The notes under the pieces: model-generated
Seen by the model: only the letters and a program-made list of their open reading frames with translations
Told to the model about the DNA's origin: nothing
Databases searched by the model: none
Origin: Candidatus Babeliales bacterium
GTDB lineage: Bacteria; Babelota; Babeliae; Babelales; Vermiphilaceae
Direction: 5' to 3'
DNA length: 64,000 nt
Assembly (NCBI GenBank): GCA_963743635.1
Contig: CAVUQO010000003.1
Coordinates: forward strand, 320,001-384,000
Part shown: positions 5,835-36,017 of the stretch, in pieces
Layout of the letters: the number at the start of each line of letters is the position of its first letter
Numbering within the stretch: position 1 is the first letter of the stretch
Made by a program: the position numbers and the translations under genes

Positions 5835-6283
5835 ACACAACCTCATATTTAGGGTTAATGATTAAAATAACTAATTTCAATGGTATCATTTTTTTAATAC
5901 AAAGCAAGTATGATAGCGCCAGAAAGCCTTTATATAAGGACATTTTGTTACTCTTTGTATAATTTCTCTGTGTAATATTTTGTTTCTTTAGTCCCGGTAG
6001 AAGGGGCGATGCGCGCGTTGAAGCTTGCTCTCCTTGAGTCTTCTCTTACGGTCTATTATCCGATTCTGCATGAAATGTTTGATCGCGCTAAAAAACCTTA
6101 TTTTTAAACATTTTTTGAAATTGCGGTCACTTTATTTGGTTTCCTGAGGTCATCATAAATATATTTACTGAATCAACCATGCGCATTTATTGTAAAATAA
6201 AAGATCAAATAGAAAATTATTGCATCCAGGGAAGCCAATAGAGTAAGATGGTCCGTATAGGACACTCAATAAAAGGAGACGAT

Positions 6284-7447
6284 GTGAAGAAACTAATGGT
6301 TTTATGCGCAATCGGCGGTCTAGTCGCCATGTTCGGGACATCGCTTGTGGCAGACACTAAGATAGTGAGGATACCAAGGCCTCTTGGGGTTGCTGCTGAG
6401 GGATATATACCTGCCCAAGAGCAGCTTGAGTTGAATGATGACGAGACTCTTACGGTATCGACATTTGCAGAATTAATTAGGGAAAAGCAACAGCAGGGTT
6501 TGGCATTTATTATGGCGCGGGTGCTGACCAGAACTAATGAGGGATTGAATGTACATTATTTTGATGCTCATTCATTGAACAGATTATATGGCCAGTATCC
6601 TTTTAGCGTTGCTCAGCAAGTGAATGGTAAGATTGATCCCATTAATAGAGCTCCTATATTCTATATCCAATATTTCACGATCAGTACTATCAATGCTCCG
6701 GCATTTGAGTATTTATGTTCGGACTATGAGATACTCACTAATGCTCAAGATAATCTGTATAAACAGATTTTTTATGCAAATCAAAATGACAATCGTCAGT
6801 TGCAACTTCGTAGTCAGATCTTTCTTGCTCAGAGGTATCTGTTGGGAAATGGCGTAGAAAAGAATTATGCAACGGCGCGCCAGTATTTCGAGCAAATAGC
6901 AAATCAGAATGTTAATCCGGGGGCAGCAGCGGGAGCCAAACACTGTTTGGGGGAAATCTATTATAAAGGAAATGGGGTAGAAAAGAATTATGAAACGGCG
7001 CGTCAGTATTTCGAGCAAGCAGCAAATCAGAATGTTAATCCGGGGGCAGCAGCGATAGCCAAATACAATTTGGGAACAATCTATTATGAGGGAAATGGCG
7101 TAGATCAGGATTATGCAACGGCGCGCCAGTATTTCGAGCAAGCAGCAAATCAGAATGTTAATCCGGGGATAGCAGCGAGAGCAAAATACAATTTGGGAAC
7201 AATCTATTATGAGGGAAAAGGCGTAGATCAGGATTATGCAAGGGCGCGTAACTGGTATCAGCAGGTAATAGATTCTCAAAACATTGATGAGGCAGATAAA
7301 AATCGAGCGCGAGCAAAAATTGCTGAGATAGATAGGCTTGAGGCGGCTCAGGCATCGGGTGTAAAGCGTGAAGGTGAAGTGGCTGAAGAAAAAAACGTGA
7401 AGCGTCAAAAAATGAATAAAGAAAATGATAATAATAATAACAATTAA
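6284..7447 (+). CDS. Secreted Sel1-like repeat protein A (N-terminal U-box-like domain, 41-aa repeats, C-terminal NLS-like tail)
   Basis: AAGGAG RBS before GTG at 6284; signal peptide; LG.IYY.G.GV..DY..AR.YFEQAA Sel1 repeats. Confidence 0.85.
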   Translation: MKKLMVLCAIGGLVAMFGTSLVADTKIVRIPRPLGVAAEGYIPAQEQLELNDDETLTVSTFAELIREKQQQGLAFIMARVLTRTNEGLNVHYFDAHSLNRLYGQYPFSVAQQVNGKIDPINRAPIFYIQYFTISTINAPAFEYLCSDYEILTNAQDNLYKQIFYANQNDNRQLQLRSQIFLAQRYLLGNGVEKNYATARQYFEQIANQNVNPGAAAGAKHCLGEIYYKGNGVEKNYETARQYFEQAANQNVNPGAAAIAKYNLGTIYYEGNGVDQDYATARQYFEQAANQNVNPGIAARAKYNLGTIYYEGKGVDQDYARARNWYQQVIDSQNIDEADKNRARAKIAEIDRLEAAQASGVKREGEVAEEKNVKRQKMNKENDNNNNN

Positions 7448-7476
7448 AAGGGTGCCAAAAACATTAAGGGATAGGG

Positions 7477-9233
7477 ATGAAGAAAATAATAATTGGACGG
7501 ATGATCGGCGGTCTAGTCGCCATGCTCGGAACATCGCTCTGGGCAGACACCAAGATAGTGAGGATGCCGCCTACGACGCATATGCAGAGCAATGGATCGG
7601 ATCGATCTGAAGAGATGCTCGATCTTACCTTGGAAGATCCAATAATGCAGGAGCAATTTGCAGCACTCATTAATCAAAAGCAAGAGGAGGATCTTCCCTA
7701 TATTATTGTGCGCGTGGTGACGCAGGGCAATGGGCAGAATAATGTAGATTATGGTGATGCGCATGGTTTTAATAAGCTGTTCGGAGGATATCCCTTAAAA
7801 AGTTCTGCGCCTCTTTATAATTATAAGGCGCCGCATAATGGCTTACCGGTGCAGCAGGTAGATTATTTTATACTCAATGATGCTGATGAGGCATTTGAAT
7901 ATTTGTGTTCCTATTATGACTTAATGGTTGATCCGGAAAAAGAGGAGCATTACGCCAATTATTTGCCGCAAATCAAACTGAGAACCCTAAGTTGCACGTC
8001 AATGCACATATGCAGCTTGCAGCCAATAACGCTCTTGATCCAGAGATCTCGGCACAATCACAGTTACGATTGGGCGAAATGTACTATAACGGCACGTATG
8101 GCTTGGCAAAGCAGCATGGAAAGGCATCAGATTATCTGCAACAGGTTCTTGCCAATGAGCAGAATAATGCAGTGCTCATGCAACGTGCGCATGACATCTT
8201 GAGTCAGGTTCATTATGAAGGAACGCATGGTGCATCAAAAAATTATGAAGTAGCAGCCAATAGTTTAGAGTGGCTCCTTCAAAACGAAACTGATCCGATA
8301 CGGCTGGCAACGATGCTGCTGCGGCTTGGTATGATCTACTATTCAGGAAACTATGGGGTAGAGCAAGATTACGCAAAAGCACGTGTTTATTTTGAACAGG
8401 CTGCTGAGCAAACGGATGACACTGCCATTGCTGCATATGCAATGTATATGTTGGCGCAAATCTATTATCGCGGCTTGGGGCTTGAAAAAGATTATGCAAA
8501 GGCAACTCAGTATTTGGAGCAGATAGCATATGATGATCAGCTTGGAGATCTTGCGGCAAAAGCGCAGGTAATACTCGCTGAGATTTGCTACATCGGTGGT
8601 TATGGAGTGACGCGCGATTGTGGCAAGGCATGTGCCTATTGCTCGGAGGTAGCAGATACTGCGACAGATCCATCGGCATTAGCAGGAGCACAATATTGGC
8701 TTGGTGAAATACGTTATTTTGGTGACGATGCTGATGAGCCGAGCGAAGAAGATGCGTATGAATTATGGAAAGCGGTCGCCAACCAAGAAAATAATGAGCA
8801 AGCTGCGGCACGTGCCAATTATTGGCTCGGAACTTTATATTATGAAGGCAAAGGTGTGAGTAAAGATAATAAACTCGCCTTGCATCATTTTAAAAAAGCA
8901 GCATTTCAAAAAGCTGATCAATGGGCATCTGCTGAAGCACTCGGATGGCTTGGATGGGCATATTATGAAGGTGAACTTGTATCGCGCAGTTATAAACAGG
9001 CATCTAAATATTGGACTCAAGTAGCAAATCAGCAGCATAGTGCTGATGCATGTATCGATGCGCAGTTGGGGCTTGGCGAAATTTATTACGTCGGTGGTTA
9101 TGGTGTATCGAAAAATCACACGCAAGCGCGGCAGTATTACGAGCAAGTATTGGCAGTCGAAGATGCTGATCCTGCAGTTAAAGCAAATGTACGAGCAAAG
9201 CTTGATGCATTACAAAGTGTGAAAACAAAATAA
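7477..9233 (+). CDS. Secreted Sel1-like repeat protein B (apparent frameshift near 7960-7990)
   Basis: ORF 7477..8202 has the signal peptide and family N-terminal domain; overlapping ORF 7992..9233 has about 9 divergent Sel1 repeats. Confidence 0.8.
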
Positions 9234-9263
9234 TTAGATTGTATTAATAAAAAAGGAGAAACG

Positions 9264-11960
9264 ATGAAGTATATAAAGATGATAGCAATTGCCGTGATGT
9301 TCGCGGGAATTGGTGGCGTGGTGTACTTTAACGCGAGCCAGCCGCCAGCACCGCAAGAAGGGCAGGTTAAGACGATCAGAGTAGCGCAACCGGCAGCAGG
9401 AGGTCAGGAAATTCAATATGTTAATGAAACGTTGAATTTGAGTGATGAAGACCCAATTGGCCTCATCTCATTTTCAGATTTAATCGAAGCAAAAAGAGAG
9501 GCAAATCTGCCTTATATTATTGCACGCGTTCAGACTGATAATGGATATCATCGTTATTATGATGCTCATGCATTGAATAACTATTTGTTTGGCATTTTGG
9601 GCCGTGCACCATTCAAGGAAATTAGTGAGTATGCGGATATTTATCGTGTTCCAATAGCAAGAATCGATTACTTTATTATTAATGAGCCTATTGCGGGATC
9701 AGCATTGCGCACTCAAGAATTTAGACATTGGTGTTCATTTGATGATTTGGTGGCAGACACACCACGTTGGGCAGCTGAATTTTATGCAAATGAACCAGCT
9801 CCGGCCGAGCAGCCGTTGACGCCAGCAGAAATGTTAGAGCGTGCATATCATTTTTATAGTGGCTTTAATGAAGAAGATGAACCGATTGAGCGGGATTATG
9901 CGCGAGCCTTTGCGGATTGTCAGTCTGTTGCCGCTCAAACTGAGGATCCTCAGGCAGCCGCGGCAGCTGCTAATATGCTTGGTAATATGTATCGCAAAGG
10001 GCATGGTGTGGATCAAAATTATCAGCAAGCAATTGTATATTATCGACAAGCAGCAGCTCAAATCTATGATGTGTATGCAGCTATGAAAGCATTAGAAAAT
10101 CTGGGTGATATGTATCGTATGGGCGAAGGAGTTGCGCAAGATCATGAGCAGGCAGCTGATTATTATAATCAGGTAATCGCGCGAGCGGATGAGGCTGGAA
10201 TTCCTGGAGATGCTGCAGAAGCACAAATAAGGCTTGGCAATATGTATTACTATGCTGAAAGATTTCCTCGGAATTATGCAAGGGCGCGTGGGTATTTCGA
10301 GCAAGCAGCAAATCAGAATGTTAATCCGTGGGCATCAGCGTTAGCCAAATACTGTTTGGGGGAAATCTATTATAAAGGATATGGCATAGCTCGGGATTAT
10401 GCTCAGGCGCGTGGGCATTTCGAGCAAGCAGCAAATCAGAATGATAATACGTGGGCATCAGCGGTAGCCAAATACTGTTTGGGGGAAATCTATTATAAAG
10501 GAAATGGCGTAGCTCGGAATTATGCAAGGGCGCGTAGGTATTTCGAGCAAGCAGCAAATCAGAATGTTCATCCGTGGGCAACAGCGGCAGCCAAATACTA
10601 TTTGGGGGAAATCTATTATAAAGGATATGGCGTAGCTCGGAATTATGCACGGGCGCGTGGGTATTTCGAGCAAGCAGCAAATCAGAATGATGATCCGGTG
10701 GCCTCAGCGGGAAGCAAAGCCTATTTGGGGGAAATCTATTATAAGGGAAATGGCGTAGCCCGGGATTATGCAAGGGCGCGTGGGTATTTCGAACAAGCAG
10801 CAAATCAGAATGATAATCTGTTGGCCTCAGTGGGAAGCAAATACTATTTGGGGGAAATCTATTATAAAGGATATGGCATAGCTCGGGATTATGCAAGGGC
10901 GCGTGGGTATTTCGAGCAAGCAGCAAATCAGAATGATAATCTGTTGGCATCAGCGGGAAGCAAATACTATTTGGGGGAAATCTATTATAAAGGAAATGGC
11001 GTAGCCCGGGATTATGCAAGGGCGCGCCAGTATTTCGAGCAAGCAGCAAATCAGAATGATAATCTGTTGGCATCAGCGGGAAGCAAATACTATTTGGGGG
11101 AAATCTATTATAAAGGATATGGCGTAGCTCGGGATTATGCTCAGGCGCGTGGGCATTTCGAGCAAGTAGCAAATCAGAATGATGATCCGGTGGCAGCAGT
11201 GACAGCCAAAGCCTATTTGGGGGAAATTTATTATAAGGGAAACGGCGTAGGTCAGGATTATGCAAGGGCGCGTGGGTATTTCGAGCAAGTAGCAAATCAG
11301 AATGATGATCCGGTGGCAGCAGCGGCAGCCAAACACTTTTTGGGGCTAATCTATTATAAGGGAAATGGCGTAGGTCAGGATTATGCAATAGCGCGCCAGT
11401 ATTTTGAGCAAGCAGCAAATCAGAATGATAATCCGGCGATATCAGCGGGAAGCAAAGTCTATTTGGGGGAAATCTATTATCAGGGAAATGGCGTAGGTCA
11501 GGATTATGCAAGGGCGCGTGGGTATTTCGAGCAAGCAGCAAATCAGAATGTTAATCCGTGGGCAGCAGTGGGAAGCAAAGGCTGTTTGGGGGAAATCTAT
11601 TATCAGGGAAATGGTGTAGCTCGGGATTATGCAAGGGCGCGTCAGTATTTCGAGCAAGCAGCAAATCAGAATGATTATCCGGCGACATCAGCGGGAAGCA
11701 AATACTATTTGGGAGAAATCTATCTTGAGGGAAATGGCGTAGAAAAAAATTATGCCATGGCGCGTACCTGGTATCAGCAGGTAATAGATTCTCAACACAT
11801 TAATGAGGCAGGTAAAAATCCAGCGCGCGCAAGAATTGCTGAGATAGATAGGCTTGAGGCAGCTGAGGCAGCGGGTGTAAAGCGTGAAGGTGAAGCTGCT
11901 GAAGGGGAAACTGCGAAGCGTCAAAAAATGAATAAAGAAGATGATAATAATAACAATTAA
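9264..11960 (+). CDS. Secreted/anchored Sel1-like repeat protein C with 12 near-identical 41-aa repeats and C-terminal NLS-like tail
   Basis: 898-aa ORF, AAGGAG RBS, hydrophobic N-terminus, family N-domain, Sel1 repeats. Confidence 0.9.
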   Translation: MKYIKMIAIAVMFAGIGGVVYFNASQPPAPQEGQVKTIRVAQPAAGGQEIQYVNETLNLSDEDPIGLISFSDLIEAKREANLPYIIARVQTDNGYHRYYDAHALNNYLFGILGRAPFKEISEYADIYRVPIARIDYFIINEPIAGSALRTQEFRHWCSFDDLVADTPRWAAEFYANEPAPAEQPLTPAEMLERAYHFYSGFNEEDEPIERDYARAFADCQSVAAQTEDPQAAAAAANMLGNMYRKGHGVDQNYQQAIVYYRQAAAQIYDVYAAMKALENLGDMYRMGEGVAQDHEQAADYYNQVIARADEAGIPGDAAEAQIRLGNMYYYAERFPRNYARARGYFEQAANQNVNPWASALAKYCLGEIYYKGYGIARDYAQARGHFEQAANQNDNTWASAVAKYCLGEIYYKGNGVARNYARARRYFEQAANQNVHPWATAAAKYYLGEIYYKGYGVARNYARARGYFEQAANQNDDPVASAGSKAYLGEIYYKGNGVARDYARARGYFEQAANQNDNLLASVGSKYYLGEIYYKGYGIARDYARARGYFEQAANQNDNLLASAGSKYYLGEIYYKGNGVARDYARARQYFEQAANQNDNLLASAGSKYYLGEIYYKGYGVARDYAQARGHFEQVANQNDDPVAAVTAKAYLGEIYYKGNGVGQDYARARGYFEQVANQNDDPVAAAAAKHFLGLIYYKGNGVGQDYAIARQYFEQAANQNDNPAISAGSKVYLGEIYYQGNGVGQDYARARGYFEQAANQNVNPWAAVGSKGCLGEIYYQGNGVARDYARARQYFEQAANQNDYPATSAGSKYYLGEIYLEGNGVEKNYAMARTWYQQVIDSQHINEAGKNPARARIAEIDRLEAAEAAGVKREGEAAEGETAKRQKMNKEDDNNNN
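10268..11743 (+). repeat. Tandem array of 12 x 123-bp coding repeats
   Basis: GCAAATCAGAATG recurs every 123 nt (e.g. 10431, 10554, 10677 ... 11661). Three homologous units also occur in protein A (about 6860-7230). Confidence 0.95.
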
Positions 11961-12050
11961 AAGGGTGCCAAAAACATTCAAGCAAAGCTTAATGCATTAC
12001 AAAGAGTGAAAACAAAATAATTAGATTGTATTAATAAAAAAGGCGAAACG

Positions 12051-13997
12051 ATGAAGTATATAAAGATGATAGCAATTGCCATGATGTTAGCGGGAATTGG
12101 TGGCGTGGTGTATTTTGACGCAAGTCAACCGCCGGCACCGCAAGAAGGGCAGGTTAAGACGATCAGAGTAGCGCAACCGGCAGCAGGAGGTCAGGAAATT
12201 CAATATGTTAATGAAGCGTTGAATTTGAGTGATGAGGATCCAATTGGCCTCATCTCATTTTCAGATTTAATCGAAGCAAAAAGAGAGGCAAATCTGCCTT
12301 ATATTATTGCACGCGTTCAGACTAATAATGGACATCATCGTTATTATGATGCTCATGCATTGAATAGCTATTTGTTTGGCATTTTGGGCCGTAGACCATT
12401 TAAGGAAATTAGTGAGTATGCGGATATTCATCGTGTTCCAATAGCAAGAATCGATTACTTTATTATTAATGAGCCTATTGCAGAGTCAGCATTGCGCACT
12501 CAAGAATTTAGACATTGGTGTTCATTTGATGATCTGGTGGCACACACACCTCGTTGGTCAGCTGAATTTTATGCGAATGAGCCCGCTCCTGTTGTGCAGC
12601 CGTTGACGCCAGCAGAAATGTTAGAGCGTGCGCATCAGCTTTATGATGGCTTTAATGAAGAACATGAAGAAGTGGAGCCGGATTATGTGCGAGCCTTTGC
12701 AGATTTTCAGTCTGTTGCCGATCAAACTGAGGATCCTCAAGCTGCTGCGGAGGCTGCTAATATGCTTGGTGCTATGTATCGCGAAGGGCATGGTGTGGCT
12801 CAAAATTATCCTCAAGCAGTTGCATATTATCGACAAGCAGCAGCTCAAGTCTATGATGTGTATGCAGCTATGGAATCATTAGAAAATCTGGGTGATATGT
12901 ATCGTCTAGGCGAAGGAGTTGTGCAAGATTATGAGCAAGCAGCTGATTATTATAATCAGGTAATCGCGCGAGCGGATGACGCTGCCATTCCTGAAGATGG
13001 CGCAGAAGCACAAATAAAGCTCGGCGATATGTATTATGATGGTGAAGGCTTTCCTCAAAGTTATGCTCAGGCGCGTGAGCATTATGAACAAGCAGCAGAG
13101 CAAAACGCGGCACTTCAAGACATGGATTTTAATGCTGCAAGTACCGCACAATTGAAGCTTGGCAAGATGTATTACAATGCTGAAGGCGTTCAAAAAGATG
13201 ATGCTAGGGCACTGGAATATTTCAGGCTCGCATTATTAGGCAATCCCCATATGAATATGGATGATGAGGTGCGCAGAGAAGCAATGGAGTATTTTGTAAG
13301 GCTTGATCCAGTTGCGGCGGCGCAGGCTCAGCTAGAGATTAGTAGAAGATATGCAGATTTTTTGATGTTTGATAAAACACTTGAATACTTGGAATCAGCA
13401 GCGAATCAACGGGCAGATATAGAGATAGCAATCAAAGCGTTAATTCAGTTGGGGAATATGTATTACAGCGGCCAACAAGGATTTGATGGTCAAGAAGTAG
13501 TTGCTCAAGATTATCAGCAGGCGCTTGCATATCGTAATCAGGCAGTGGATTTGGCAGATCAGCACGGGCTTTCTGAATTAGCAGCACCTGTGCACGTAAC
13601 ATTGGGCGATATGTATAATTATGGTGAAGGAATTAATCAAAATCGAGTCCAGGCGCTTGCCCATTATGAAAGGGCTGCGGGACAAAATAATGATCCCCAA
13701 GCGGCAGTGCATGGAAAGTATGGCCTTGGTTGGTTATATTATTTGAATGGTATAGGTGGAATTGCTGAAGACTATGCGAAGGCACGAAGATTTTTTGAGG
13801 ATGTGGTAAATAGTCCTGATGCGATAGCTTGGCAAAAACCAGTGGCGCAGCAATATCTCGGTAAAATGTATTATGAGGGATGGGGCGGTCCGGTCAATCG
13901 TGATCAAGCGCGTATATATTTTGAACAGGTGGTAAATAATCCTGATGCGTCTGATTATGATAAGCAAGAAGCGCGAGCCTATCTGAGTCGTCAGTAG
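12051..13997 (+). CDS. Secreted/anchored Sel1-like repeat protein D
   Basis: 648 aa; first about 340 aa near-identical to protein C, followed by divergent Sel1 repeats. Confidence 0.88.
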   Translation: MKYIKMIAIAMMLAGIGGVVYFDASQPPAPQEGQVKTIRVAQPAAGGQEIQYVNEALNLSDEDPIGLISFSDLIEAKREANLPYIIARVQTNNGHHRYYDAHALNSYLFGILGRRPFKEISEYADIHRVPIARIDYFIINEPIAESALRTQEFRHWCSFDDLVAHTPRWSAEFYANEPAPVVQPLTPAEMLERAHQLYDGFNEEHEEVEPDYVRAFADFQSVADQTEDPQAAAEAANMLGAMYREGHGVAQNYPQAVAYYRQAAAQVYDVYAAMESLENLGDMYRLGEGVVQDYEQAADYYNQVIARADDAAIPEDGAEAQIKLGDMYYDGEGFPQSYAQAREHYEQAAEQNAALQDMDFNAASTAQLKLGKMYYNAEGVQKDDARALEYFRLALLGNPHMNMDDEVRREAMEYFVRLDPVAAAQAQLEISRRYADFLMFDKTLEYLESAANQRADIEIAIKALIQLGNMYYSGQQGFDGQEVVAQDYQQALAYRNQAVDLADQHGLSELAAPVHVTLGDMYNYGEGINQNRVQALAHYERAAGQNNDPQAAVHGKYGLGWLYYLNGIGGIAEDYAKARRFFEDVVNSPDAIAWQKPVAQQYLGKMYYEGWGGPVNRDQARIYFEQVVNNPDASDYDKQEARAYLSRQ

Positions 13998-14024
13998 ATC
14001 AAAGAGCTCAAAAAAAAGGGGGAA

Positions 14025-15449
14025 ATGGTGAAGCAATATATAAAAATGATAGCAATTGCCGTGATGTTGGCGGGAATTGGTGGCGTGGTGTACTTTAACG
14101 CGAGTCAACCGCCGCAGGTAGCATCGCCAAAAGAATTATTAGATCAGGCGTATAGGTTACTTCAGGCAAGCAATCAGAGTGAAGCGAGCGTACTGTTGCA
14201 AAGTATTGCCGCGCAAAAAGATGATCTTTTATCTGCCGCAAAAGCAAATAACGAACTTGGTCGTTTGTATATGGGTATTAATAATGAGCGATCGACGAGA
14301 TATTTTGAAACGGCTCGTACATTATGTGAGCGGATACTAGAAAGTGAGCCAAGTGATTCCTTCGCGGCAGTAAAAGCGAATGGGATTGTTGGCGATATAT
14401 ATCGATTCGGGTTGCTCGGAGATGCAGATTATAATAAAGCGCGTGCTTATTTTGAACAAGTTATCACTCAACGGAAGTTCATGAAGGAAGCGATATATGC
14501 ATGCTATGCACTCGGGATACTCTATTATAAAGGGCAGCCAGGAGTGCTGCCGCGGGATTATGAGCGGGCGCGTCACTATTTTGAGCGAACGCTTACCTAT
14601 ACAGCTGAATTAAATGGATATCAGGGGTCAGCGACATATTATCTTGGAAAGATGTATTATCATAATCTGCTTGGCAGTACCGCAAATTATGATTTAGCGC
14701 GTCACTATTTTGAGCGCGCTCTCATGAATCAAGCCATGCCAAAGGTTAGGAGAGCCTCAGCGGATCACGATATGGGCACGATCTATTATGGGGGACTAGG
14801 AATTGCGCGGAATTATGTTTTGGCGCGTCAGCATTTTGAGCAGGTGCTGGAGAACGAAGATGCATCAGATCTCGATAGGGAAACAGCGGAATGGTTTCTT
14901 GGTACTATCTATTATCGTGGACAGGGCGTTGACCAAGATTATGTTCGAGCGCGTGACTATTTTCAGCAAGTCGTGACCAATTCTACGACACCAAATGCAG
15001 AGCTAACTTCGGCCTTATGCCGTCTTGGGGTCATATATTATTACGGGCAGGGAATAGATATAAATTATAATCTATCGCGCGAGTATTTTGAAAAGGTGTT
15101 GACGTATAGAATCGCATCTCCGAACAATACAGCAGAAGCAAAAGCGTTGCTGGGCTTTATCTATTATGACGGGAAAGGCGGTCCTCGGAATTACCGTCAA
15201 GCATACACTTATTTACATGAAGTTGTTGATCATCCATTTTTGACTCCAGCAGGGCAAGCATTGGCACAATTGTATCTTGGTAAGATGTATTATCATGGGC
15301 ATGGAGTTGGGAGCGATAAAGATCGGGCGTTTCATTATCTTGAACTTGCTGAGGGAAGTGGGCTCTTAACGGATGAACAAAATGATCTTGCACTCAATCT
15401 TATGAGCTTGATACGGGATATGCCCATGAGCAGCAAGCCAATCTTGTGA
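14025..15449 (+). CDS. Secreted/anchored Sel1-like repeat protein E
   Basis: Shares the N-terminal leader YIKMIAIAVMLAGIGGVVYFNASQPP with C and D, followed by Sel1 repeats; lacks the family N-domain. Confidence 0.85.
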   Translation: MVKQYIKMIAIAVMLAGIGGVVYFNASQPPQVASPKELLDQAYRLLQASNQSEASVLLQSIAAQKDDLLSAAKANNELGRLYMGINNERSTRYFETARTLCERILESEPSDSFAAVKANGIVGDIYRFGLLGDADYNKARAYFEQVITQRKFMKEAIYACYALGILYYKGQPGVLPRDYERARHYFERTLTYTAELNGYQGSATYYLGKMYYHNLLGSTANYDLARHYFERALMNQAMPKVRRASADHDMGTIYYGGLGIARNYVLARQHFEQVLENEDASDLDRETAEWFLGTIYYRGQGVDQDYVRARDYFQQVVTNSTTPNAELTSALCRLGVIYYYGQGIDINYNLSREYFEKVLTYRIASPNNTAEAKALLGFIYYDGKGGPRNYRQAYTYLHEVVDHPFLTPAGQALAQLYLGKMYYHGHGVGSDKDRAFHYLELAEGSGLLTDEQNDLALNLMSLIRDMPMSSKPIL

Positions 15450-15492
15450 TGTAATCCATAAAACACGTGATGCTTCACGAACCAAAATAAAT

Positions 15493-15527
15493 AAGGCCCT
15501 GACTCTCGAATGAGTCAGGGCCTTTTA
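15493..15527. terminator. Bidirectional terminator between convergent genes
   Basis: AAGGCCCTGACTC/GAGTCAGGGCCTT perfect 13-bp stem. Confidence 0.8.
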
Positions 15528-27991: not shown

Positions 27992-28009
27992 AATTTGTTA
28001 CTTCATTAA

Positions 28010-28663
28010 TTAGTGACGAATAACGATACGTCCATTCGAATCACGCGTGATGTTTATGGCGTGACGCGGTGAATAATATCGCTGATCTTCGATCATGAAA
28101 TTAAAACTAGTGGGGTGATAAAGTTCAGTTGCTTGATGTGGCTTGAGATATAACGGAGCACTATCGGGAGTACGTATGTAAATGCCCGTATTGGTTTGAT
28201 TGTTTACAATCCAAAACTCATATCCTGCATCATCAAGATTTCTATTTCTCTCTTGCGACGAATCCGAATCAGAACTATAGCTAACGTTTACGCCCGCATA
28301 GGGATAATCATATCCATAGTAGTACGGCCAACCGTAGTAGCCATAGCCCCACCATGGGTAGCCCCAGCCCCAACCGCCATATCCGCCGTATCCATACGCG
28401 CCGTAACCACGTCCATAACCGCCACGACCATAGCCGCCACGTCCGTAACCACCACGACCACCGCCGTGATAATGTCCGCCATGACCACCACGACCGCCGC
28501 GTCCACCGTGACCGCCACCATGACCACCGCCATGAAAACCGCCGCCACCGTGACCGCCTCCGCCATGTCCACCGCCGCCACCACCACCACGAGTGTTAGT
28601 CGCTAGATTGGATATTAATGCTCCAATCACTACGGTAAAGAGTAATAATTTTTTCAGATTCAC
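28010..28663 (-). CDS. Secreted Gly/His/RGG/Tyr-rich low-complexity protein with C-terminal globular segment
   Basis: Signal peptide followed by GGH, RGG, GGYG and GWGWG tracts. Confidence 0.8.
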   Translation of the reverse strand: MNLKKLLLFTVVIGALISNLATNTRGGGGGGGHGGGGHGGGGFHGGGHGGGHGGRGGRGGHGGHYHGGGRGGYGRGGYGRGGYGRGYGAYGYGGYGGWGWGYPWWGYGYYGWPYYYGYDYPYAGVNVSYSSDSDSSQERNRNLDDAGYEFWIVNNQTNTGIYIRTPDSAPLYLKPHQATELYHPTSFNFMIEDQRYYSPRHAINITRDSNGRIVIRH

Positions 28664-28672
28664 CGTGTACCC

Positions 28673-29140
28673 TTACTTTCTTTTGTACACAACGCATACA
28701 CCATTTTCATACACTTCTACAATGCCATCAGCTTTTACGCCGTTTGCATCATAGCGATAGCGTGGATGACGTTCGTGTGGGTGATGGTGATGACCATGAT
28801 GTTCATGATGATGTCCATGGCCATGATGACCATGTCTATGACCCGTGCACGCTTCATTGATTTTCACGTATTGCACGTAATTATTATTTTCAAAAACCCA
28901 TAAAACACCAGCTACGACCTTACCATTCGATGCTGCAGTTCTCACCATAGGATGCGCATGATGTTGATGGTGGTGGTGCGGATTATGACCTTGACCACGT
29001 TGTCGTTGTTGTTGGCCTTGTTGTGGGCATTGAGCGCGTTGACCTTGGCAACGTCTATTCATCGCGTTGATAGATGTTGAAATTAATCCACCTACCAATA
29101 GGCTTAGGACTAACAGTTTTTTTGCATTCTTCGTATTCAT
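28673..29140 (-). CDS. Secreted His/Gln-rich protein
   Basis: AAGGAG RBS, signal peptide, poly-His tracts, two similar V.ENN/V.ENG segments. Confidence 0.75.
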   Translation of the reverse strand: MNTKNAKKLLVLSLLVGGLISTSINAMNRRCQGQRAQCPQQGQQQRQRGQGHNPHHHHQHHAHPMVRTAASNGKVVAGVLWVFENNNYVQYVKINEACTGHRHGHHGHGHHHEHHGHHHHPHERHPRYRYDANGVKADGIVEVYENGVCVVYKRK

Positions 29141-29187
29141 ACAATTTCTCCTTTTTTGTATGTACTGTTTTTATATATTTACACTCA

Positions 29188-29481
29188 TCATTGTTCTGTT
29201 TCTTCTTCTTCTTCTTCTTGTCGTTCCCGTTCCATAAACTTTAGATCGCAAGGCGCATAGGGATCTTCTGGATTTTCTTTACAACATGGTGCTTTGTTCA
29301 CATCCACAACATCACGATCACGATTCTTGTGACGATGCGTTTTGGTATGTTTCTTCTTATGCGTGCTCCTTTTGGTCGTCCGTGCATTATCGTTATCGCC
29401 TGGCCGAGCAGTGCTAATCAAGAGGTTTGATCCGAACGCCAAAACGATAATAGCTAGAACGAGTAGTTGATTGTTATTCAT
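29188..29481 (-). CDS. Small secreted protein with basic centre and acidic tail
   Basis: Signal peptide, K/R/H cluster, poly-Glu C-terminus. Confidence 0.7.
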   Translation of the reverse strand: MNNNQLLVLAIIVLAFGSNLLISTARPGDNDNARTTKRSTHKKKHTKTHRHKNRDRDVVDVNKAPCCKENPEDPYAPCDLKFMERERQEEEEEETEQ

Positions 29482-29490
29482 AGATCATCC

Positions 29491-29892
29491 TTAATCTTCA
29501 TATCCTGCCGGACCTTGATTTGGGTAATAGTTGTTTACGTACGTATCGCTACGATTTCGACTATTCGCTGCAGCCGCGCTCGCTGCTACCGCTGTAGTTG
29601 CCAATGCTGCATTTGCAGCCCAGTAACCACCATAACCGCCGCCGTAACCATATCCGCCACCATAACCGTAACCACCGCGTCCGTAACCGCCGCGCCCATA
29701 GCCACCACGTCCACTGCGTCCGCCATGGCCACCACGATTATGGCCACCATGACCGCCACGTCCACCACGTCCGCCATGCCCATGTCCGCCGCGACCACCG
29801 CCGCCACGTCCACCGCCACGCGCTTCAATTGACATCTGAGCAGCAACGCCCAGAATCAATATGCAGGTAACAAGTAATTTTTTGATATTCAT
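29491..29892 (-). CDS. Secreted RGG/GGY-rich protein
   Basis: Signal peptide, RGG/GGYG repeats, Ala-rich segment, DTYVNNYY...GYED tail. Confidence 0.78.
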   Translation of the reverse strand: MNIKKLLVTCILILGVAAQMSIEARGGGRGGGGRGGHGHGGRGGRGGHGGHNRGGHGGRSGRGGYGRGGYGRGGYGYGGGYGYGGGYGGYWAANAALATTAVAASAAAANSRNRSDTYVNNYYPNQGPAGYED

Positions 29893-29907
29893 AAATTCCT
29901 AACTCTC

Positions 29908-30342
29908 TTAATCTTCGTAGCCGTAATAGTTGGTTACATAAGTATCGCCGTCGCCATCAGCATTCATCGCTGCGATTTCAGCTGCCGTTAATGCAATCCA
30001 GAGACCATCTAGACCCCAGTAACCCCAACCCCAACCATTTCTATAGTAGGCGTTGCCGCGTCCATAACCATGTCCGCCACGTCCACCGCGGTTTCCACGT
30101 CCGCCACGATTACCACCTTTACCATGACCACCCTTACCATGACCACCTTTGCCATGACCGCCACCGTGTCCGCCATGATGACCACCACCGTGTCCGCCAT
30201 GATGACCACCACCATGACCGCCACCATGACCACCACCATGCCCGCCGCCATGACCACCACCGCCGCCTTTTGTTTCAATTGATTTTTGCGCAATCACGCA
30301 GAGCACAAGTATGCTTGCTATAATTAGTTTCTTCATATTCAT
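29908..30342 (-). CDS. Secreted GGH-rich protein
   Basis: Signal peptide, (GGGH)n, RGG, GWGWGYWG, DTYVTNYYGYED tail. Confidence 0.78.
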   Translation of the reverse strand: MNMKKLIIASILVLCVIAQKSIETKGGGGGHGGGHGGGHGGGHGGGHHGGHGGGHHGGHGGGHGKGGHGKGGHGKGGNRGGRGNRGGRGGHGYGRGNAYYRNGWGWGYWGLDGLWIALTAAEIAAMNADGDGDTYVTNYYGYED

Positions 30343-30375
30343 CGTTTTTCCTTTTTTTATTGGTTTTTAATTAAA

Positions 30376-30750
30376 CTACTCTACTTCAACTTCTTCATCT
30401 TCTTCGTCGCAATCAGTGTCCATGTCTTCGACGTCTTCATCTTCTTCGTCGACATCAGTGTCCATGTCTTCAACTTCTTCATCTTCCTCATCTATTTGTT
30501 TTTGCATTTGAGGATTCTGGTTTCGAGCTTGTTGGTTTTTCATGCCACATTGTCCACCGCTACAGTAAGCGCCGCCTTGTGCCGGTTGATCCGCAGTTTG
30601 ACCAGCTGCTTGACGCCTGCGACCTGGTGCGTTATATGCACGGGTTCCTTGGGCAGATTGTTTTACCGGAACACGACCAGCTTCAATACTTACTTGGCTC
30701 ATTGCAGCTAAAAAGAGTGCACAGAGCACCATTAATTTAGTTTTGTTCAA
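30376..30750 (-). CDS. Secreted protein with duplicated acidic tail
   Basis: AAGGAG RBS before TTG start, signal peptide, CSGGQC, repeated DEEDE.VEDMDTD units. Confidence 0.72.
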   Translation of the reverse strand: MNKTKLMVLCALFLAAMSQVSIEAGRVPVKQSAQGTRAYNAPGRRRQAAGQTADQPAQGGAYCSGGQCGMKNQQARNQNPQMQKQIDEEDEEVEDMDTDVDEEDEDVEDMDTDCDEEDEEVEVE

Positions 30751-30894
30751 ATCAACTCCTTTTTAACGTTTCACATAGCGTAAGCAAGAACGCTAAGTAT
30801 TGTTTTATTGGACTTTTTACACCGCCTGCTTTATTTCATAATAGAAAACATGGGCGCTCGAAATCAAGAGTTTTTCGTTTAGAAAGAGGATTTT

Positions 30895-31896
30895 TTAGGT
30901 TTTAACCAGGCGAGAGGAGGAAATGGCGATGTTTTTTCCGTCAATTGAGCCGGTTACGAGCAGGCCTGGATAGCTATAATCGCCGCTGGTGATCTTTTTA
31001 TTGGCCAGCTGTATGGAAAGATCAGGGCATCCCGGGACTTTTTGGTTCCGGTAGCCAATGCGGGATATTTTGGTGCCATAGGTTTGGGCGGTCCGTTTGA
31101 GACTGTGCCAAGACCGATTCATGCCTTTGGAAACGGTGCCATCCCAGTAAGGGATCATGAGCAATTCAATGCTTGTGGTGTGGCACATCAATTCAAGCGC
31201 CTGCAAAATGGTGGCAGTCGGCTGAAGGCAGATGACCGTATTAAGATGGGAAATGCCGGTTTGTTTGGTGATGGAAGTGATGAGCTCATACTGAGCCCAT
31301 TGTTTACCCGAAGGGCGTTGGCCGATGAGGCCAGGGTCGATAACGATGGTTTTTTGATTATGATGCAATACAGTAATAGTTCCCTTGTTGCAAGGAATTG
31401 AGAGCATGTTTTCTGATTTGAATAACGTGGAGCAAACGCAGATCAAAAAGAGCAGCATAAAGCAGATGATGCTTCGATTACGTGATCGCGTGAGCGGATG
31501 ATGGACTACAGCGAGCGTAGCCAGTGGCAGGAGTATGAGAATAATCCAATGAGGTTGAGAAAATCCAATGAAAGACTTGTGCGGGGCACAGTCCAGGCAA
31601 TAAAGCCATGCTTTGGTTAGATAATCGAGCGCGATCGAGAGCCACGTAATCGGGATCCCGAGCAGTGCGCCGAAAAAAATCAGGGATGAAAGGAGTAAGA
31701 ATACCAGTATGAATGGATTAAAAATCAGGTTGCCAAGTGGAGAAAACAGCGAAAAGGGTAGACCCCACGCTATGAGTATGGGTAGCGAAAGAAGGGTGAC
31801 GTAAAACTGGATATATATGAATTCCAAAAGCCAGTTCTTTATAGACCGCAAGAGAGGGTTTTGAACCAGAAAGGTATAAAAATGCTTTAAAACCAT
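30895..31896 (-). CDS. ComEC/Rec2-like membrane protein (partial-length, degenerate MBL-like C-terminus)
   Basis: TLLSLPIL..WG..FSLFSPLGNL membrane motif followed by a T.VIDPG soluble region, as in the C-terminal half of ComEC. Confidence 0.55.
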   Translation of the reverse strand: MVLKHFYTFLVQNPLLRSIKNWLLEFIYIQFYVTLLSLPILIAWGLPFSLFSPLGNLIFNPFILVFLLLSSLIFFGALLGIPITWLSIALDYLTKAWLYCLDCAPHKSFIGFSQPHWIILILLPLATLAVVHHPLTRSRNRSIICFMLLFLICVCSTLFKSENMLSIPCNKGTITVLHHNQKTIVIDPGLIGQRPSGKQWAQYELITSITKQTGISHLNTVICLQPTATILQALELMCHTTSIELLMIPYWDGTVSKGMNRSWHSLKRTAQTYGTKISRIGYRNQKVPGCPDLSIQLANKKITSGDYSYPGLLVTGSIDGKNIAISSSRLVKT

Positions 31897-31949
31897 TGCG
31901 TTTGGGGATTTCGTTCGTGTACAGTGAATAAAAAAAGGAGTATCAAAAT

Positions 31950-32123
31950 ATGAAAAGTTTCAAACGCGTTGCTGCTCAAATGCATGAACATTGGGAACAT
32001 TTAGTCGATAATGCACATCGCAATATGTCTCGTGGTGCTGAATATATCAATAAAGTCATTACGTGCGCTCATAAAGATCAGTGGCGCAAGCATATGAGAG
32101 GCAGAGAACACAAGAAGAAATAG
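31950..32123 (+). CDS. Small His-rich basic protein (57 aa), not in the ORF track
   Basis: AAGGAG RBS 9 nt upstream of ATG; MKSFKRVAAQMHEHWEHLVDNAHRNMSRGAEYINKVITCAHKDQWRKHMRGREHKKK fills the intergenic gap. Confidence 0.6.
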   Translation: MKSFKRVAAQMHEHWEHLVDNAHRNMSRGAEYINKVITCAHKDQWRKHMRGREHKKK

Positions 32124-32144
32124 CGATCTCTCCAGTCAGAGTTT

Positions 32145-32489
32145 TTACTGTTTATCTGCAGAAGCGCTAGAATGAGCGTTCCAGACTGTCACCGCACAAT
32201 ATAAGACTAAGGCGCCAACAACCATGCGATAATTCCACGCATCCCTTGAGGCTTGAAGAGCATCAGCTTCTCGTGTATTTTCTGTGGTCCTAGCGCGATT
32301 TTCTGCGCAGATTCTATCTTGTAGTTCCTGCGTCTCAGCGACGAGCGCAGTATCCGTACGTTGCGTCGGTTGCGTTGCATTCCTACGTTGCGTCGGTTGC
32401 ATTGCGTGAACTGCTGGGCTGATAATGAGTGTTAGTATTAATATTTTCATTCTGAGTAGTGCCTTAGGCACGTATCGAAGAGTTTTCAT
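32145..32489 (-). CDS. Small secreted orphan with C-terminal TM
   Basis: Signal peptide ending AVHA-MQ, short internal repeat, C-terminal hydrophobic segment. Confidence 0.65.
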   Translation of the reverse strand: MKTLRYVPKALLRMKILILTLIISPAVHAMQPTQRRNATQPTQRTDTALVAETQELQDRICAENRARTTENTREADALQASRDAWNYRMVVGALVLYCAVTVWNAHSSASADKQ

Positions 32490-32517
32490 AATTTTATTCC
32501 TTTAAATATGCAAAGTA

Positions 32518-32844
32518 TTAGAGATTATTATAGGAATACATTGCAGCGGCTACGATTGCACTGCTCCCAAAAAAGAACACAGCCGTAGTCAGCGCGCGTA
32601 TGGTCCGTTGTGAGTTTTGATCATTACGTTCAAGAACCGCGAGTCTGGCGTTGATGTGTGTTAATTGATCGTTTAATTTTTTTTCTGCTTGGCGAAGATA
32701 GCTTACATTTTGGTAAGTGAGGTCTTCCATTGAGGACATTCTTGTTTCAAGATCACTAATGCGTCCGCTTTCAAGGTCAGGATCCATTGCAGAAATCTGC
32801 GTGGCCGCACCAATAAGTGCGAGCAGTAATAATAGTTTTTTCAT
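32518..32844 (-). CDS. Small secreted orphan, coiled coil plus C-terminal TM
   Basis: MKKLLLLL signal ending ISA-MD; heptad pattern; C-terminal hydrophobic tail. Confidence 0.72.
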   Translation of the reverse strand: MKKLLLLLALIGAATQISAMDPDLESGRISDLETRMSSMEDLTYQNVSYLRQAEKKLNDQLTHINARLAVLERNDQNSQRTIRALTTAVFFFGSSAIVAAAMYSYNNL

Positions 32845-32953
32845 AATAATATTCTCTAGTTATTGTTATTTTGAACCATTTGGTCCGTTATAGTTTAATG
32901 TTGTTCAGACGACAATTATCAAAGGTTGTATCCATTTCACGGTCAAGCAACAT

Positions 32954-33769
32954 CTACTTTTGAGCCTGTGCGCATAAAAATTGCGCTATCTCCATTAAGG
33001 ATGGGTGATGCGCAATGGTTAGTGTTGCGTTATTTAATTCATGTGACTCTTTGAGGTCAAAACGTCTATTTTTCGCAGCTTTACCTGCTCCCAGACCATA
33101 AAATCCTGATGGTTGTTCGCGATCGACCTTCATGAATTTCCGCATCCACAACGGCTGCTGACCTATTGCTACCATTGCTGCATCTACTTCTTGTTGACCG
33201 ACGTGAACAGGCGCCATAGTTTGAGCATCAAATGCATACGGCCAATATCCATCCTGTCCATTGCTTGCTGCAAATAATAATTTTGTACCGCGGTTTATCC
33301 AGCATACATATTGAATTGATTCATTACCCACCTCTGCGAGGGTAATATTTCGCCATTGTTTGGACGATTCTTCTTTCAACACGCGCAACACGCCACCGGT
33401 TTCTACCATGGCACATTGCGTAGCATCATTACTAATCGCAAAACTGTCTAGCGGCTTTAACGATAATGTTACCTGCGTAATCGGTGTAAATAGACCTATG
33501 AATCTGAAACGTTCTTGATCCGGCAATATGGTCTCTAGAGCGGATAGTACTGCTGCAGGATTCAATTGATTTGTGTTTTTAAGGGATTGTACTTTAGCTT
33601 GCACTGCCTCATAGAGCAAACGCGGTTCTGCTTGCGCTATAAACATCCCGATACGGGTAGTTATTTCCTGTTGAGCATCGTCCATCGTCATACTGGTGCA
33701 TGCATTGTCCATCGCCATACTGGTGCATGCGATGAATGAACTGAGCGCTATAATAAATATTTTCTTCAT
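32954..33769 (-). CDS. Secreted orphan protein
   Basis: MKKIFII signal; 27-nt duplication at the cleavage site (ACTSMAMDN/ACTSMTMDD); beta-rich C-terminal half. Confidence 0.7.
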   Translation of the reverse strand: MKKIFIIALSSFIACTSMAMDNACTSMTMDDAQQEITTRIGMFIAQAEPRLLYEAVQAKVQSLKNTNQLNPAAVLSALETILPDQERFRFIGLFTPITQVTLSLKPLDSFAISNDATQCAMVETGGVLRVLKEESSKQWRNITLAEVGNESIQYVCWINRGTKLLFAASNGQDGYWPYAFDAQTMAPVHVGQQEVDAAMVAIGQQPLWMRKFMKVDREQPSGFYGLGAGKAAKNRRFDLKESHELNNATLTIAHHPSLMEIAQFLCAQAQK

Positions 33770-33782
33770 TATTTTTTATCCT

Positions 33783-34109
33783 TTAGTTACCTGAATTGTT
33801 ATCTGTATTACAACACGTTATGTAAAGGCAGAAAGCACCCGCACATACACATAAGATTTTTGTTGAGGTCTGAAGAAATTCCATAGGGAAGTTAGCGATT
33901 CTATTGGCTTCTTCTGCTCTTCTATCTATTTCTGTATCATCGAACTGTTCATCGAGCCATAGAGTTGTTTTTTTAACAGCTCTTGCTGTTTTTCGTTGTA
34001 TGTGCGCTTCGTATGGTGTCGGGTTTAGTCCTGACTCGTCACCAAATTCTTCCATAGCCTGAGCAATGAACGGACTTATGAGAGCGAGGATGAATAATAT
34101 CTTCTTCAT
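33783..34109 (-). CDS. Small secreted orphan with Cys-rich C-terminal TM
   Basis: Likely start MKKILFIL at 34109; signal ends AQA-ME. Confidence 0.68.
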   Translation of the reverse strand: MKKILFILALISPFIAQAMEEFGDESGLNPTPYEAHIQRKTARAVKKTTLWLDEQFDDTEIDRRAEEANRIANFPMEFLQTSTKILCVCAGAFCLYITCCNTDNNSGN

Positions 34110-34117
34110 GGCTGACC

Positions 34118-34384: not shown

Positions 34385-34550
34385 GGTTTATCCTTTTATT
34401 AAGTGATTTATAATAATTATGTAACATAATACGTTACATTTCTATTGTAAATTATTTTATTATAAATGTAAAATGCCCCATTTTGAACCTGATTGCAGGT
34501 TGAGATTTGGGGAATAAAGGGGGATCCAGGAGGATAGGTTTGGGGGCTAT

Positions 34551-34823: not shown

Positions 34824-34834
34824 AGAGCGGGATA

Positions 34835-35973: not shown

Positions 35974-36017
35974 AAATTGTTCCCTAATGATTACTGTGAT
36001 TCAATACAGATACATTG

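Follow-up and report, generated by a model that had tools for sequence, protein, structure and literature searches.

In TALE and PPR proteins, very similar helical repeats follow one another in long tandem arrays and differ from each other at a few fixed positions. PPR genes have been described as possibly being under diversifying selection (PMC1892557). For the Sel1 repeat family, codon models with a star-tree control identified positively selected residues in the Hcp/slr genes of Helicobacter pylori, and homology models placed these residues on both the convex and the concave surface (Ogura et al. 2007, PMC1941758). The solved Sel1 solenoid 4bwr is described as having a concave, less conserved face formed by helix-1 (13 residues, with L7, G8 and Y11) and a convex face formed by helix-2; its groove holds peptide tails in crystals (PMC3851747). 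In TPR proteins, positions 2, 5, 9, 12, 13, 33 and 34 are reported as the most variable ones, lying on one face and contacting ligands (Magliery & Regan 2005, PMC1261162). Here we analyze gene B, which encodes a DUF5092 head followed by an array of twelve near-identical Sel1 repeats, in a 64,000-nucleotide (nt) stretch of a Candidatus Babeliales bacterium (assembly GCA_963743635.1, contig CAVUQO010000003.1, 320,001-384,000 of the forward strand). This stretch is referred to below as the window, and all coordinates are given relative to it unless a contig is named.

The genome is 1.45 Mb in 3 contigs and 85% complete by marker genes. Amino acid replacements among the units of the B array are concentrated in one 12-codon segment, where they far outnumber silent changes. 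The reading that we favor, with a probability of about 0.65, is that the Sel1 array of an exported host-interaction protein was amplified in this bacterium, kept recombining and came under diversifying selection along the helix that lines its groove.

Replacements are concentrated in one segment of the repeat unit

A first-pass annotation made from the letters of the window had reported twelve 41-amino-acid (aa) repeats on a Sel1 scaffold. They are present as in-frame units at 10266-11741. Tandem Repeats Finder delimits 10267-11742 with a period of 123, 12.0 copies, 88% matches and 0% indels, and one open frame is kept across the 1476 bp of the array. The Sel1 scaffold is confirmed by the Pfam match of protein B to PF08238 (E=7e-93, 302.2 bits against a gathering cut-off of 30.7, 13 stretches). 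Aligned to 4bwr and the Sel1 consensus, the unit holds all key Sel1 residues (A/S27, L31, G32, Y35, G38, G40-V41, A7, Y10, A14, A15 and N18) within a length of 41 aa, compared with the usual 36-38 aa. Three further units of this type lie in the neighboring gene A; a blastn search of the 1.45-Mb genome found no copies beyond these 12+3 units, only weak matches to a second Sel1 array.

Five codon series listed in the same annotation are all found in the unit alignment. Codon 20 occurs as AAT, CAT, GAT or TAT and codon 29 as TAC, GCC, CAC, GTC or GGC. Within B, codon 22 is TGG, GTG, TTG or GCG, codon 26 is TTA, GTA, GCA, GGA or ACA, and codon 30 is TGT, TAT or TTT; protein A adds GGG at codon 22, ATA and AGA at codon 26, and AAT at codon 30. 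The claim that codon positions 1 and 2 vary over some twelve codons with position 3 fixed is likewise accurate: across codons 19-30, position 1 is variable in 8/12 codons, position 2 in 9/12 and position 3 in 1/12. In the other 29 codons, position 3 is variable in 11/29, and positions 1 and 2 together are variable at 17/58 sites.

Minimal numbers of changes were obtained as a tree-free lower bound from a per-column Steiner tree on the codon graph. The resulting ratio of non-synonymous to synonymous changes is 27:1 in codons 19-30 and 18:13 in the remaining 29 codons (Fisher p=5.4e-4), with 3-5 replacements at each of several codons. A scan of all 41 circular 12-codon windows of the unit returned exactly codons 19-30 as the top window, with 27/45 non-synonymous changes (permutation P=0.0022). 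The other 18/45 fall at codons 1, 2, 3, 6, 9, 10, 14, 33, 36, 37, 39 and 41. The variation is thus concentrated in the segment and not, as first described, confined to it. The description "almost purely non-synonymous" holds for codons 19-30 and fails for the whole array, which carries 13-14 synonymous minimal changes, nearly all outside the segment.

Codon models support diversifying selection in the B array

Over the 66 unit pairs, NG86 estimates of non-synonymous (dN) and synonymous (dS) divergence are 0.359 and 0.038 in the segment (dN/dS 9.6) and 0.085 and 0.169 in the scaffold (dN/dS 0.5). The 27:1 count departs from the neutral site ratio of 27.7:8.3 (~3.3:1; binomial p=0.006). Site-model likelihoods under M1a and M2a were computed with our own GY94 implementation. 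The boundaries of the segment were chosen after inspection of the data; the site-model tests use no pre-specified segment. Twice the log-likelihood gain of M2a over M1a was 36.7 for 15 units on the maximum-likelihood (ML) tree, 45.7 for 15 units on a scaffold-only tree and 17.9 for 12 units (likelihood-ratio tests, p=1.3e-4 to 1e-10 across the three tree-based runs), and 50.6 and 98.1 on star trees. The positively selected class had an omega2 of ~4-7 and comprised 16-32% of sites.

P(omega>1) exceeded 0.9 in each of the three tree-based runs at segment sites 22, 26 and 29 and scaffold site 9, in 2/3 runs at segment sites 24, 27 and 30 and at scaffold sites 1 and 6, and in 1/3 at site 2. When data were simulated under the fitted M1a on the ML tree, 2/3180 replicates held any 12-codon window equally depleted of silent changes. 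Strong diversifying selection at a limited set of residues, with site-wise dN/dS above 1, had been proposed at the outset, and the segment dN/dS, the preference for M2a and these neutral simulations bear it out for B.

Other arrays of this kind were compared with B in a register that aligns unit L31-G32 to Sel1 L7-G8. A second DUF5092-Sel1 gene of the same genome (contig C3:742339-744093, array C) has a 585-aa open frame with six near-identical 42-aa units. Its variation lies just before the LG motif, where the proportions of non-synonymous (pN) and synonymous (pS) differences are 0.254 and 0.189, versus 0.052 and 0.122 elsewhere. Genome G117, another member of the Babeliales, has adjacent DUF5092-Sel1 genes at L013:1309-2982 and L033:778-2982 (arrays E and F) with seven 45-aa units each; one of the two genes has a doubled head, and the arrays show a higher-order periodicity of 270 or 405 bp. 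Segment dN/dS is 1.67 in E and 0.72 in F, versus 0.30 and 0.36 for the rest of the units. An omega above 1 as a general feature of such arrays is not borne out in E and F. Positions -2, 2r and 5r are the most variable ones in all four independent arrays (B, C, E and F), and B is the extreme case of this family-wide tendency.

The hot sites are predicted to lie along one face of helix-1

By sequence, the best match of protein B among solved structures is the 11-repeat Sel1 solenoid 4bwr (E=1.8e-39). In the register given above, the hot sites 22, 26, 29 and 30 would correspond to Sel1 positions -2, 2r, 5r and 6r; S/A27 would take the small packing position 3r, and K37 would be 13r. The 5-residue insertion ahead of helix-1 is predicted to contain residues 20-24, and the hypervariable segment would run from the lengthened loop between repeats into the N-terminal half of helix-1. 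For TPR proteins, positions 2, 5, 9, 12 and 13 are described as hypervariable ligand contacts on the concave face (PMC1261162). With unit positions 22-37 taken as a helix, the variability moment at 100 degrees per residue is 0.45 versus 0.21 for permuted positions (p=0.019; p=0.006 with the A units added), and on this assumed helix the invariant residues K28, L31, G32, I34 and Y35 sit on the face opposite to the hot sites. The original suggestion that the variable residues face a ligand gains only indirect support from this alignment to the Sel1 consensus of a solved structure and from the helical periodicity.

B is a recombinant of D-type and A-type sequence

Over their first ~1000 nt, gene B and its downstream paralogue D share 85-98% identity (dS 0.16, dN/dS 0.44), which collapses at open reading frame (ORF) nt 1000-1050, which is the start of the array. 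The tails of B and A are 74% identical (dS 0.25). Scaffold dS between units is 0.17, of the same order as the B-D and B-A paralogue distances. Since a D-like 5' part ends at the array start and an A-like tail follows the array, B is, as judged from these alignments, a chimera of a D-type 5' part, amplified A-type units and an A-type tail. Gene A is the likely source of the unit type.

The homogenizing recombination proposed in the first-pass annotation agrees with a mosaic unit history, in which 198/465 informative site pairs are incompatible with a single tree (pairwise homoplasy index (PHI) test, p=0.03). Units 5-7 are 0-2 nt apart in the segment and 4-5 nt apart in the scaffold. At codons 26-27, 7 units carry GGA-AGC (Gly-Ser) and 5 carry NNA-GCC (x-Ala), with x-Ala also in all three A units. 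This perfect linkage suggests two unit lineages, with replacements at codon 26 restricted to the A-like one.

Diversifying selection and its alternatives

If diversifying selection is the correct reading, B would be a Sec-exported protein in which a Sel1-repeat solenoid follows the DUF5092 head. A D-type 5' stretch of ~1000 nt would have been joined to A-type repeat units and tail, the A-type 41-aa unit would have been amplified to twelve by unequal recombination, and the copies would have gone on exchanging short tracts. Replacements would then have far outpaced silent changes at residues 20-22, 24, 26, 27, 29 and 30, and also at 37 and 39. The changed residues would sit in the extended loop between repeats and along a single face of helix-1, which lines the concave groove, with positive selection on a putative ligand-binding groove as the most likely cause. 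The ligand is probably a host protein or peptide, by analogy with secreted repeat proteins of intracellular bacteria. We infer that B is exported, that the hot sites lie on the concave face, what kind of ligand is bound and what the head domain does.

Several points weigh against this reading. The segment holds 1 silent change where 5.8 would be expected from the scaffold (P=0.02; P=0.037 in the window scan), a scarcity that selection on the protein alone does not explain. Recombination among units breaks the single-tree assumption of the likelihood test, and this reticulate history may have inflated the result; the tree-free counts and the simulation leave recombination unmodelled. In arrays E and F, M2a was not significantly better than M1a (p=0.48 and p=0.08). 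With these tests non-significant and the excess in C weak, the family-wide pattern could be relaxed constraint, with B as its extreme case. The placement of the hot sites along the concave face is drawn from a sequence alignment and an assumed helix. The hot residues themselves are mostly hydrophobic or small (W/V/L/A; L/V/A/G/T; Y/A/H/V/G; C/Y/F) and linked within units, a pattern that compensatory packing or common descent could also produce. Unit number and order come from one assembly with at least one indel error nearby (7936). Close orthologues for a comparison between strains were absent among 30 relatives, all of other genera (best foreign match 33% identity); the best match to B outside its own genome in a search of 5.8 billion proteins was 39% identical, and a scan of Joint Genome Institute (JGI) metagenomes yielded 6 loci, none of them an allele of B, with identities of 49% and 35% for the top matches.

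Under relaxed constraint alone, the loop and the first part of helix-1 would simply be freer to change than the rest of the unit (omega ~1), and the scarcity of silent changes would be due to chance. Such relaxation would account for a segment that is the most variable part of all four arrays, for the low ratios in E and F (dN/dS only 0.72-1.67) and C (pN/pS 0.254/0.189) and for the non-significant tests in E and F; it agrees with the generally lower conservation of the Sel1 concave face (PMC3851747) and takes force from the post hoc choice of the segment. We nevertheless consider it distinctly unlikely for B, where a 27:1 count would have to arise from a neutral expectation of ~3.3:1, where site-model tests free of any chosen segment are all significant, and where only 2/3180 simulations capped at omega=1 match the observed window and several codons have taken 3-5 replacements.

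Another explanation is structural co-evolution, in which compensatory packing between neighboring helix-1s tunes the geometry or stability of the solenoid and does not reflect adaptation to a ligand. The pairing of hydrophobic or small hot residues is what it would predict: G26 is paired with S27 in 7/7 units, W22 with C30 in 3/4 and V22 with A or H at 29 in 3/3. Contacts between helix-1s exist in 4bwr and are described as poorly conserved (PMC3851747). The volume swings are, however, large for packing sites, with site 22 going from W to A or G and site 29 from Y to G. The invariant positions K28, L31, G32, I34 and Y35 would sit on the other helical face, and the equivalent positions 2 and 5 of TPR proteins contact ligands (PMC1261162). 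With 12 units, linkage is inseparable from shared descent. These considerations leave co-evolution improbable as the main cause.

A modular code, in which each unit would read one element of a linear ligand via 4-6 variable residues as in TALE, PPR or armadillo proteins, is suggested by the near-identical scaffold with its position-specific variation, and it is what the first-pass annotation had likened the array to. Twelve units would exceed one superhelical turn at the 7-8 units per turn described for 4bwr, and Sel1 and TPR grooves bind extended peptide tails (PMC3851747). The resemblance of pattern stands; the rest of the comparison does not. Around ten positions vary instead of two, the residues are mostly apolar, the array has an isoelectric point of 8.8 with a net charge of ~+1 per unit, unlike a nucleic-acid-binding profile, and Pfam detects Sel1/TPR only, with no TALE or PPR homology. 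We regard such a code as highly unlikely, and a nucleic-acid ligand is not upheld.

Neither a mutator nor assembly error accounts for the unit differences

Targeted mutagenesis of the segment codons by a diversity-generating retroelement (DGR) or another mutator had also been proposed. DGR targets based on AAY codons vary at codon positions 1-2 with the third base fixed, and the B segment likewise varies at the first and second codon positions of a short stretch. None of the three defining parts of a DGR (reverse transcriptase, template repeat and adenine specificity) was found for B. A search of the 85% complete genome for the reverse transcriptase family RVT_1 (PF00078) returned neither matches nor first-look candidates, and RVT_1 was found in 0/3 of the other genomes of the order that hold several DUF5092 genes (G117, G119 and G111). 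A blastn search of the genome with one unit returned the 12+3 units and weak second-array matches and no template repeat. Adenine is absent in all 15 copies from the variable columns of codon 21 position 2 (C/T) and codon 22 (T/G, G/T/C).

Transitions and transversions stand at 13:15 in the segment and 19:12 in the scaffold (p=0.30), and a special mutation spectrum of the segment was rejected on this ordinary ratio. The differences are also fixed, being identical in contigs of two metagenome runs. A DGR was rejected because no reverse transcriptase, template copy or adenine-specific pattern was found, and no sign of another targeted mutagenesis process was seen. The incompleteness of the genome leaves any such mutator with a very small residual probability.

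Metagenome runs from peat and soil, belonging to two studies, contain the B-cluster stretch. Runs X1 and X2 come from different studies, and their contigs cover all 30 bins of 6200-15500 at >=99% identity; 57/58 X1 contigs and 56/56 X2 contigs reach this level, with zero differing letters listed within 10266-11741. Either run may be the source of the assembly itself, and their contigs are short, none spanning the array, so that unit count and order rest on the window assembly. An assembly or consensus artefact of a repetitive region, for which the homopolymer indel at 7936, several other split ORFs and a unit order beyond the reach of short contigs could be cited, is extremely unlikely given that both runs reproduce the unit differences letter for letter, that the array is free of indels and open over its full length, and that errors would not spare third codon positions.

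Run X3 (18/30 bins, low depth) and run X9 (two 151-nt contigs, 2/30 bins) serve as evidence of neither habitat nor absence. One low-depth X3 contig at 11229-11504 carries ten differences from the window, and 4/5 of the differences listed (including 11264-11266 and 11277) turn B9 scaffold into the B2/B8 type. It is possibly a strain variant that arose by exchange between units or a chimeric contig; the differences hint at strain-level shuffling.

Genomic setting of gene B

The features of the cluster are collected in Table 1. Five paralogues lie on one strand at 6248-15449, B being the third, and all share an N-terminus that is basic and then hydrophobic. In B, its hydropathy suggests that this is probably a Sec signal peptide or a signal anchor.

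Table 1 Gene B, its repeat array and the five-paralogue cluster (window coordinates).
Feature	Position	Strand	Description	Basis
Gene A	6248..7447	+	399-aa paralogue, DUF5092 and Sel1; three B-type units at 6857-7225 (starts 6857, 6980, 7103); B-type tail	
Split paralogue	7477..9233	+	ORFs 7477-8202 and 7992-9233	One-base difference at 7936
Gene B	9264..11960	+	898 aa; N-terminal hydrophobic stretch (probable signal or anchor), DUF5092 head, 3 degenerate and 12 near-identical Sel1 repeats, charged tail	ORF list, Pfam
N-terminus of B	9264..9335	+	Basic n-region, then 15-17-residue hydrophobic stretch (MKYIKMIAIAVMFAGIGGVVYFNA)	Maximum 15-aa hydropathy 2.46 at residue 6
DUF5092 (PF17010) head of B	9393..9845	+	Aligned with 28 other domains (alignment A3)	Profile match
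Degenerate Sel1 units of B	9897..10265	+	Three 41-aa units, common to B and paralogue D	
Units B1-B12	10266..11741	+	Twelve in-frame 123-bp (41-aa) Sel1 units	Tandem Repeats Finder, ORF frame
Hypervariable segment of B1	10320..10355	+	Unit codons 19-30; repeats every 123 bp up to 11673-11708	
C-terminal end of B	11742..11960	+	Capping helix and charged tail (…KRQKMNKEDDNNNN)	74% identity to protein A tail
Gene D	12051..13997	+	648-aa paralogue	5' ~1000 nt 85-98% identical to B
Fifth paralogue	14025..15449	+	474 aa; cluster-type N-terminus, Sel1 repeats, no DUF5092 match	
Terminator-like hairpin	15493..15524	.	13-bp stem, then T-rich runs on both strands; end of the five-gene cluster	

In the split paralogue, contigs of X1 and X2 both hold one extra A behind 7936, inside the A-run ccggAAAAAgagg. 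The split is therefore most likely a consensus error of the assembly at this homopolymer. Within the array, a 406-aa antisense ORF (10321-11541, minus strand) and the promoter-like hexamers that recur on that strand, one pair in each unit, are probably meaningless by-products of the array periodicity.

Elsewhere in the window, housekeeping genes occur as fragments or split ORFs at 543-1145, 2187-2801, 47385-49291, 56323-56913 and 58085-58744; they include the large and small chains of ribonucleotide reductase, an ABC-F-type double ABC ATPase and sigma-70 regions 1.1 and 4. These may be further assembly indels or real decay, and three short stretches inspected at such genes held no homopolymer. 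On a JGI metagenome contig from a relative (L161), a ribonucleotide reductase small subunit is followed by an A-like DUF5092-Sel1 gene (456 aa), as in the window, with repeats that are diverged and not near-identical. Eight tandem ORFs of 180-219 aa lie at 41535-47279 on the minus strand. GNAT acetyltransferase matches were found in 7/8 of them, and 9/28 pairs are related at blastp E<=1e-3 with 21-37% identity, as old paralogues. At 28001-36000, GC content climbs to 0.46-0.475; GC skew is locally reversed at 28001-30000, and six ORFs of 155-333 aa at 28010-35973 match no Pfam family.

The DUF5092 head, its family and the organism

The head of B scores 26.4 bits against the DUF5092 profile with hmmscan (cut-off 27) and 28.7 bits, above the cut-off, in a six-frame search of the genome. 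All seven members of alignment A2 match this profile (7/7, best E=3.3e-12). DUF5092 occurs ten times in the own genome and in 20/261 genomes of the class. A profile of the 29 domains in alignment A3 retrieved 880 clusters (50% identity) at E<=0.001 among 1.84 billion representatives. Architectures were scanned for 100 of the best 150 hits, selected by a size limit. Repeat arms were Sel1 in 50, TPR in 9, WD40/beta-propeller in 8 and ankyrin in 2; 23 hits had DUF5092 only and 8 had no family at all. As read from these domain matches, the family architecture is a constant DUF5092 head with interchangeable protein-binding arms. The strongest DUF5092 scores (114 bits) belong to hypothetical proteins of Mortierellomycotina fungi (Lobosporangium, Mortierella and Podila; P0235, P0247 and P0269). 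DUF5092 may be of eukaryotic origin, or the fungal copies may stem from endobacterial DNA in those assemblies. In the searched literature, DUF5092 is not mentioned, nor is Babeliales together with Sel1; Dependentiae and Sel1 co-occur in one paper.

Some observations touch on a possible U-box relationship of the head. Its neighbors in the ESM Atlas include three U-box clusters, two of them with Sel1 (0.78-0.79), and a 27%-identical head (P0043) has NleG (0.87-0.89), U-box (0.83-0.86) and Baculo_RING (0.84) neighbors; all of these values are below the 0.9 line. The Pfam profiles U-box (PF04564) and NleG (PF06416) gave no match at E<=10 in 7 head domains or in the whole genome. An hhalign comparison of A3 (29 sequences) with 22 canonical U-box domains was not significant, with a local probability of 1.1% (P=0.047) and a global one of 0.09%; its local alignment pairs hYYDA..LN..LFG and NP.N..PI with sYEr.aIe.wl and sP.t..pl, which are the expected core motifs. 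Against a single U-box, the hhalign probability was 0.47%. Searched against PDB sequences at E<=10, the A2 profile returned a single chance match (papillomavirus L1 protein, E=0.42) and the A3 profile none. For the head, Pfam at E<=10 returned DUF5092 only, and NCBIfam returned generic Sel1/TPR similarities far below cut-offs. NleG and RavN are described as U-box-type ligases undetectable by sequence comparison (PMC2891834, PMC5819833). We retain a U-box-like head as a tentative predicted lead.

A broader proposal would make the DUF5092-repeat proteins undescribed secreted host-hijacking adaptors of protist-infecting Babeliales, possibly cryptic U-box-like E3 ligases, whose constant head carries exchangeable target-binding arms, with the B arm as a natural "library on a consensus scaffold". 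In that arm, twelve identical Sel1 modules could be re-specified at 4-6 groove residues, and recombination could quickly re-program target recognition. As a whole, we think this proposal unlikely.

Concerning the organism, MnmG of the window is 67% and 60% identical to proteins of two metagenome-assembled genomes named "Candidatus Babeliales bacterium" and <=49% identical to loci named for other groups. Published accounts present Dependentiae as parasites that live inside protists, encode many repeat proteins bearing signal peptides and possess a type II secretion system that includes two copies of gspD (PMC6561590, PMC4776705). The own genome encodes two secretins and two T2SSE ATPases; a search of it for VirB4 found none. 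A 432-aa ankyrin-repeat protein is encoded at 53808-55106 on the plus strand of the window; this kind of repeat is reported as abundant in Dependentiae (PMC6561590).

Significance and comparison with known systems

LRR, ankyrin, TPR and PPR proteins and the Sel1 proteins of H. pylori already offer well-known examples of repeats that were amplified, underwent gene conversion and came under positive selection at a binding face. B is an unusually clean natural case in which a helical-repeat scaffold is held constant and a few positions, predicted to share one face, are repeatedly replaced. The hot positions mark likely specificity-determining sites of the Sel1 fold, for which few ligand complexes exist, and could guide the design of Sel1-based binders. 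The DUF5092 family, undescribed in the searched literature, is the more novel lead: its members are candidate host-interaction genes in Babeliales, a group with few cultured representatives, and a U-box-like ligase activity of the head, if correct, would make them a new group of bacterial E3 mimics.

Among secreted proteins of related biology, the ankyrin, WD40, TPR and F-box proteins of Dependentiae likewise carry signal sequences, form expanded paralogue groups and are presumed to manipulate the host; the passages searched of the two papers describing them contain no Sel1, U-box or site-specific selection analysis (PMC6561590, PMC4776705). NleG and RavN, as described, share with DUF5092 proteins the layout of a small domain without detectable U-box similarity joined to a variable target-binding part; the DUF5092 head gave no match to the U-box or NleG profiles at E<=10.

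In its repeats, the B array resembles TALE and PPR arrays in being near-identical (88% unit identity, no indels) with variation concentrated in 12 codons, and differs from them in having no sequence relationship, more variable positions and apolar residues there. With E. coli c5321/EsiB (4bwr), the B units share the LG..Y..G.GV..D…A..W/Y…AA motif, whereas c5321/EsiB is described as having 36-aa units and 3-residue inter-repeat loops, with repeats that are not near-identical and no DUF5092 head (PMC3851747). The TPR comparison rests on aligning L7/G8 to the LG of the B unit, which would place sites 26 and 29 at TPR positions 2 and 5. The TPR pattern is one of entropy over thousands of unrelated repeats and that of B one of dN/dS within a single young array; the B unit is, moreover, 5 residues longer, and part of the hot segment, residues 20-24, is predicted to lie in this insertion. 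The nearest parallel in kind of evidence is the H. pylori slr family, which like B comprises Sel1-repeat proteins of a host-associated bacterium with positive selection detected by codon models. There, the signal comes from orthologues compared across strains, with diverged repeats; in B, it arises among twelve near-identical units of one gene that also carries a DUF5092 head.

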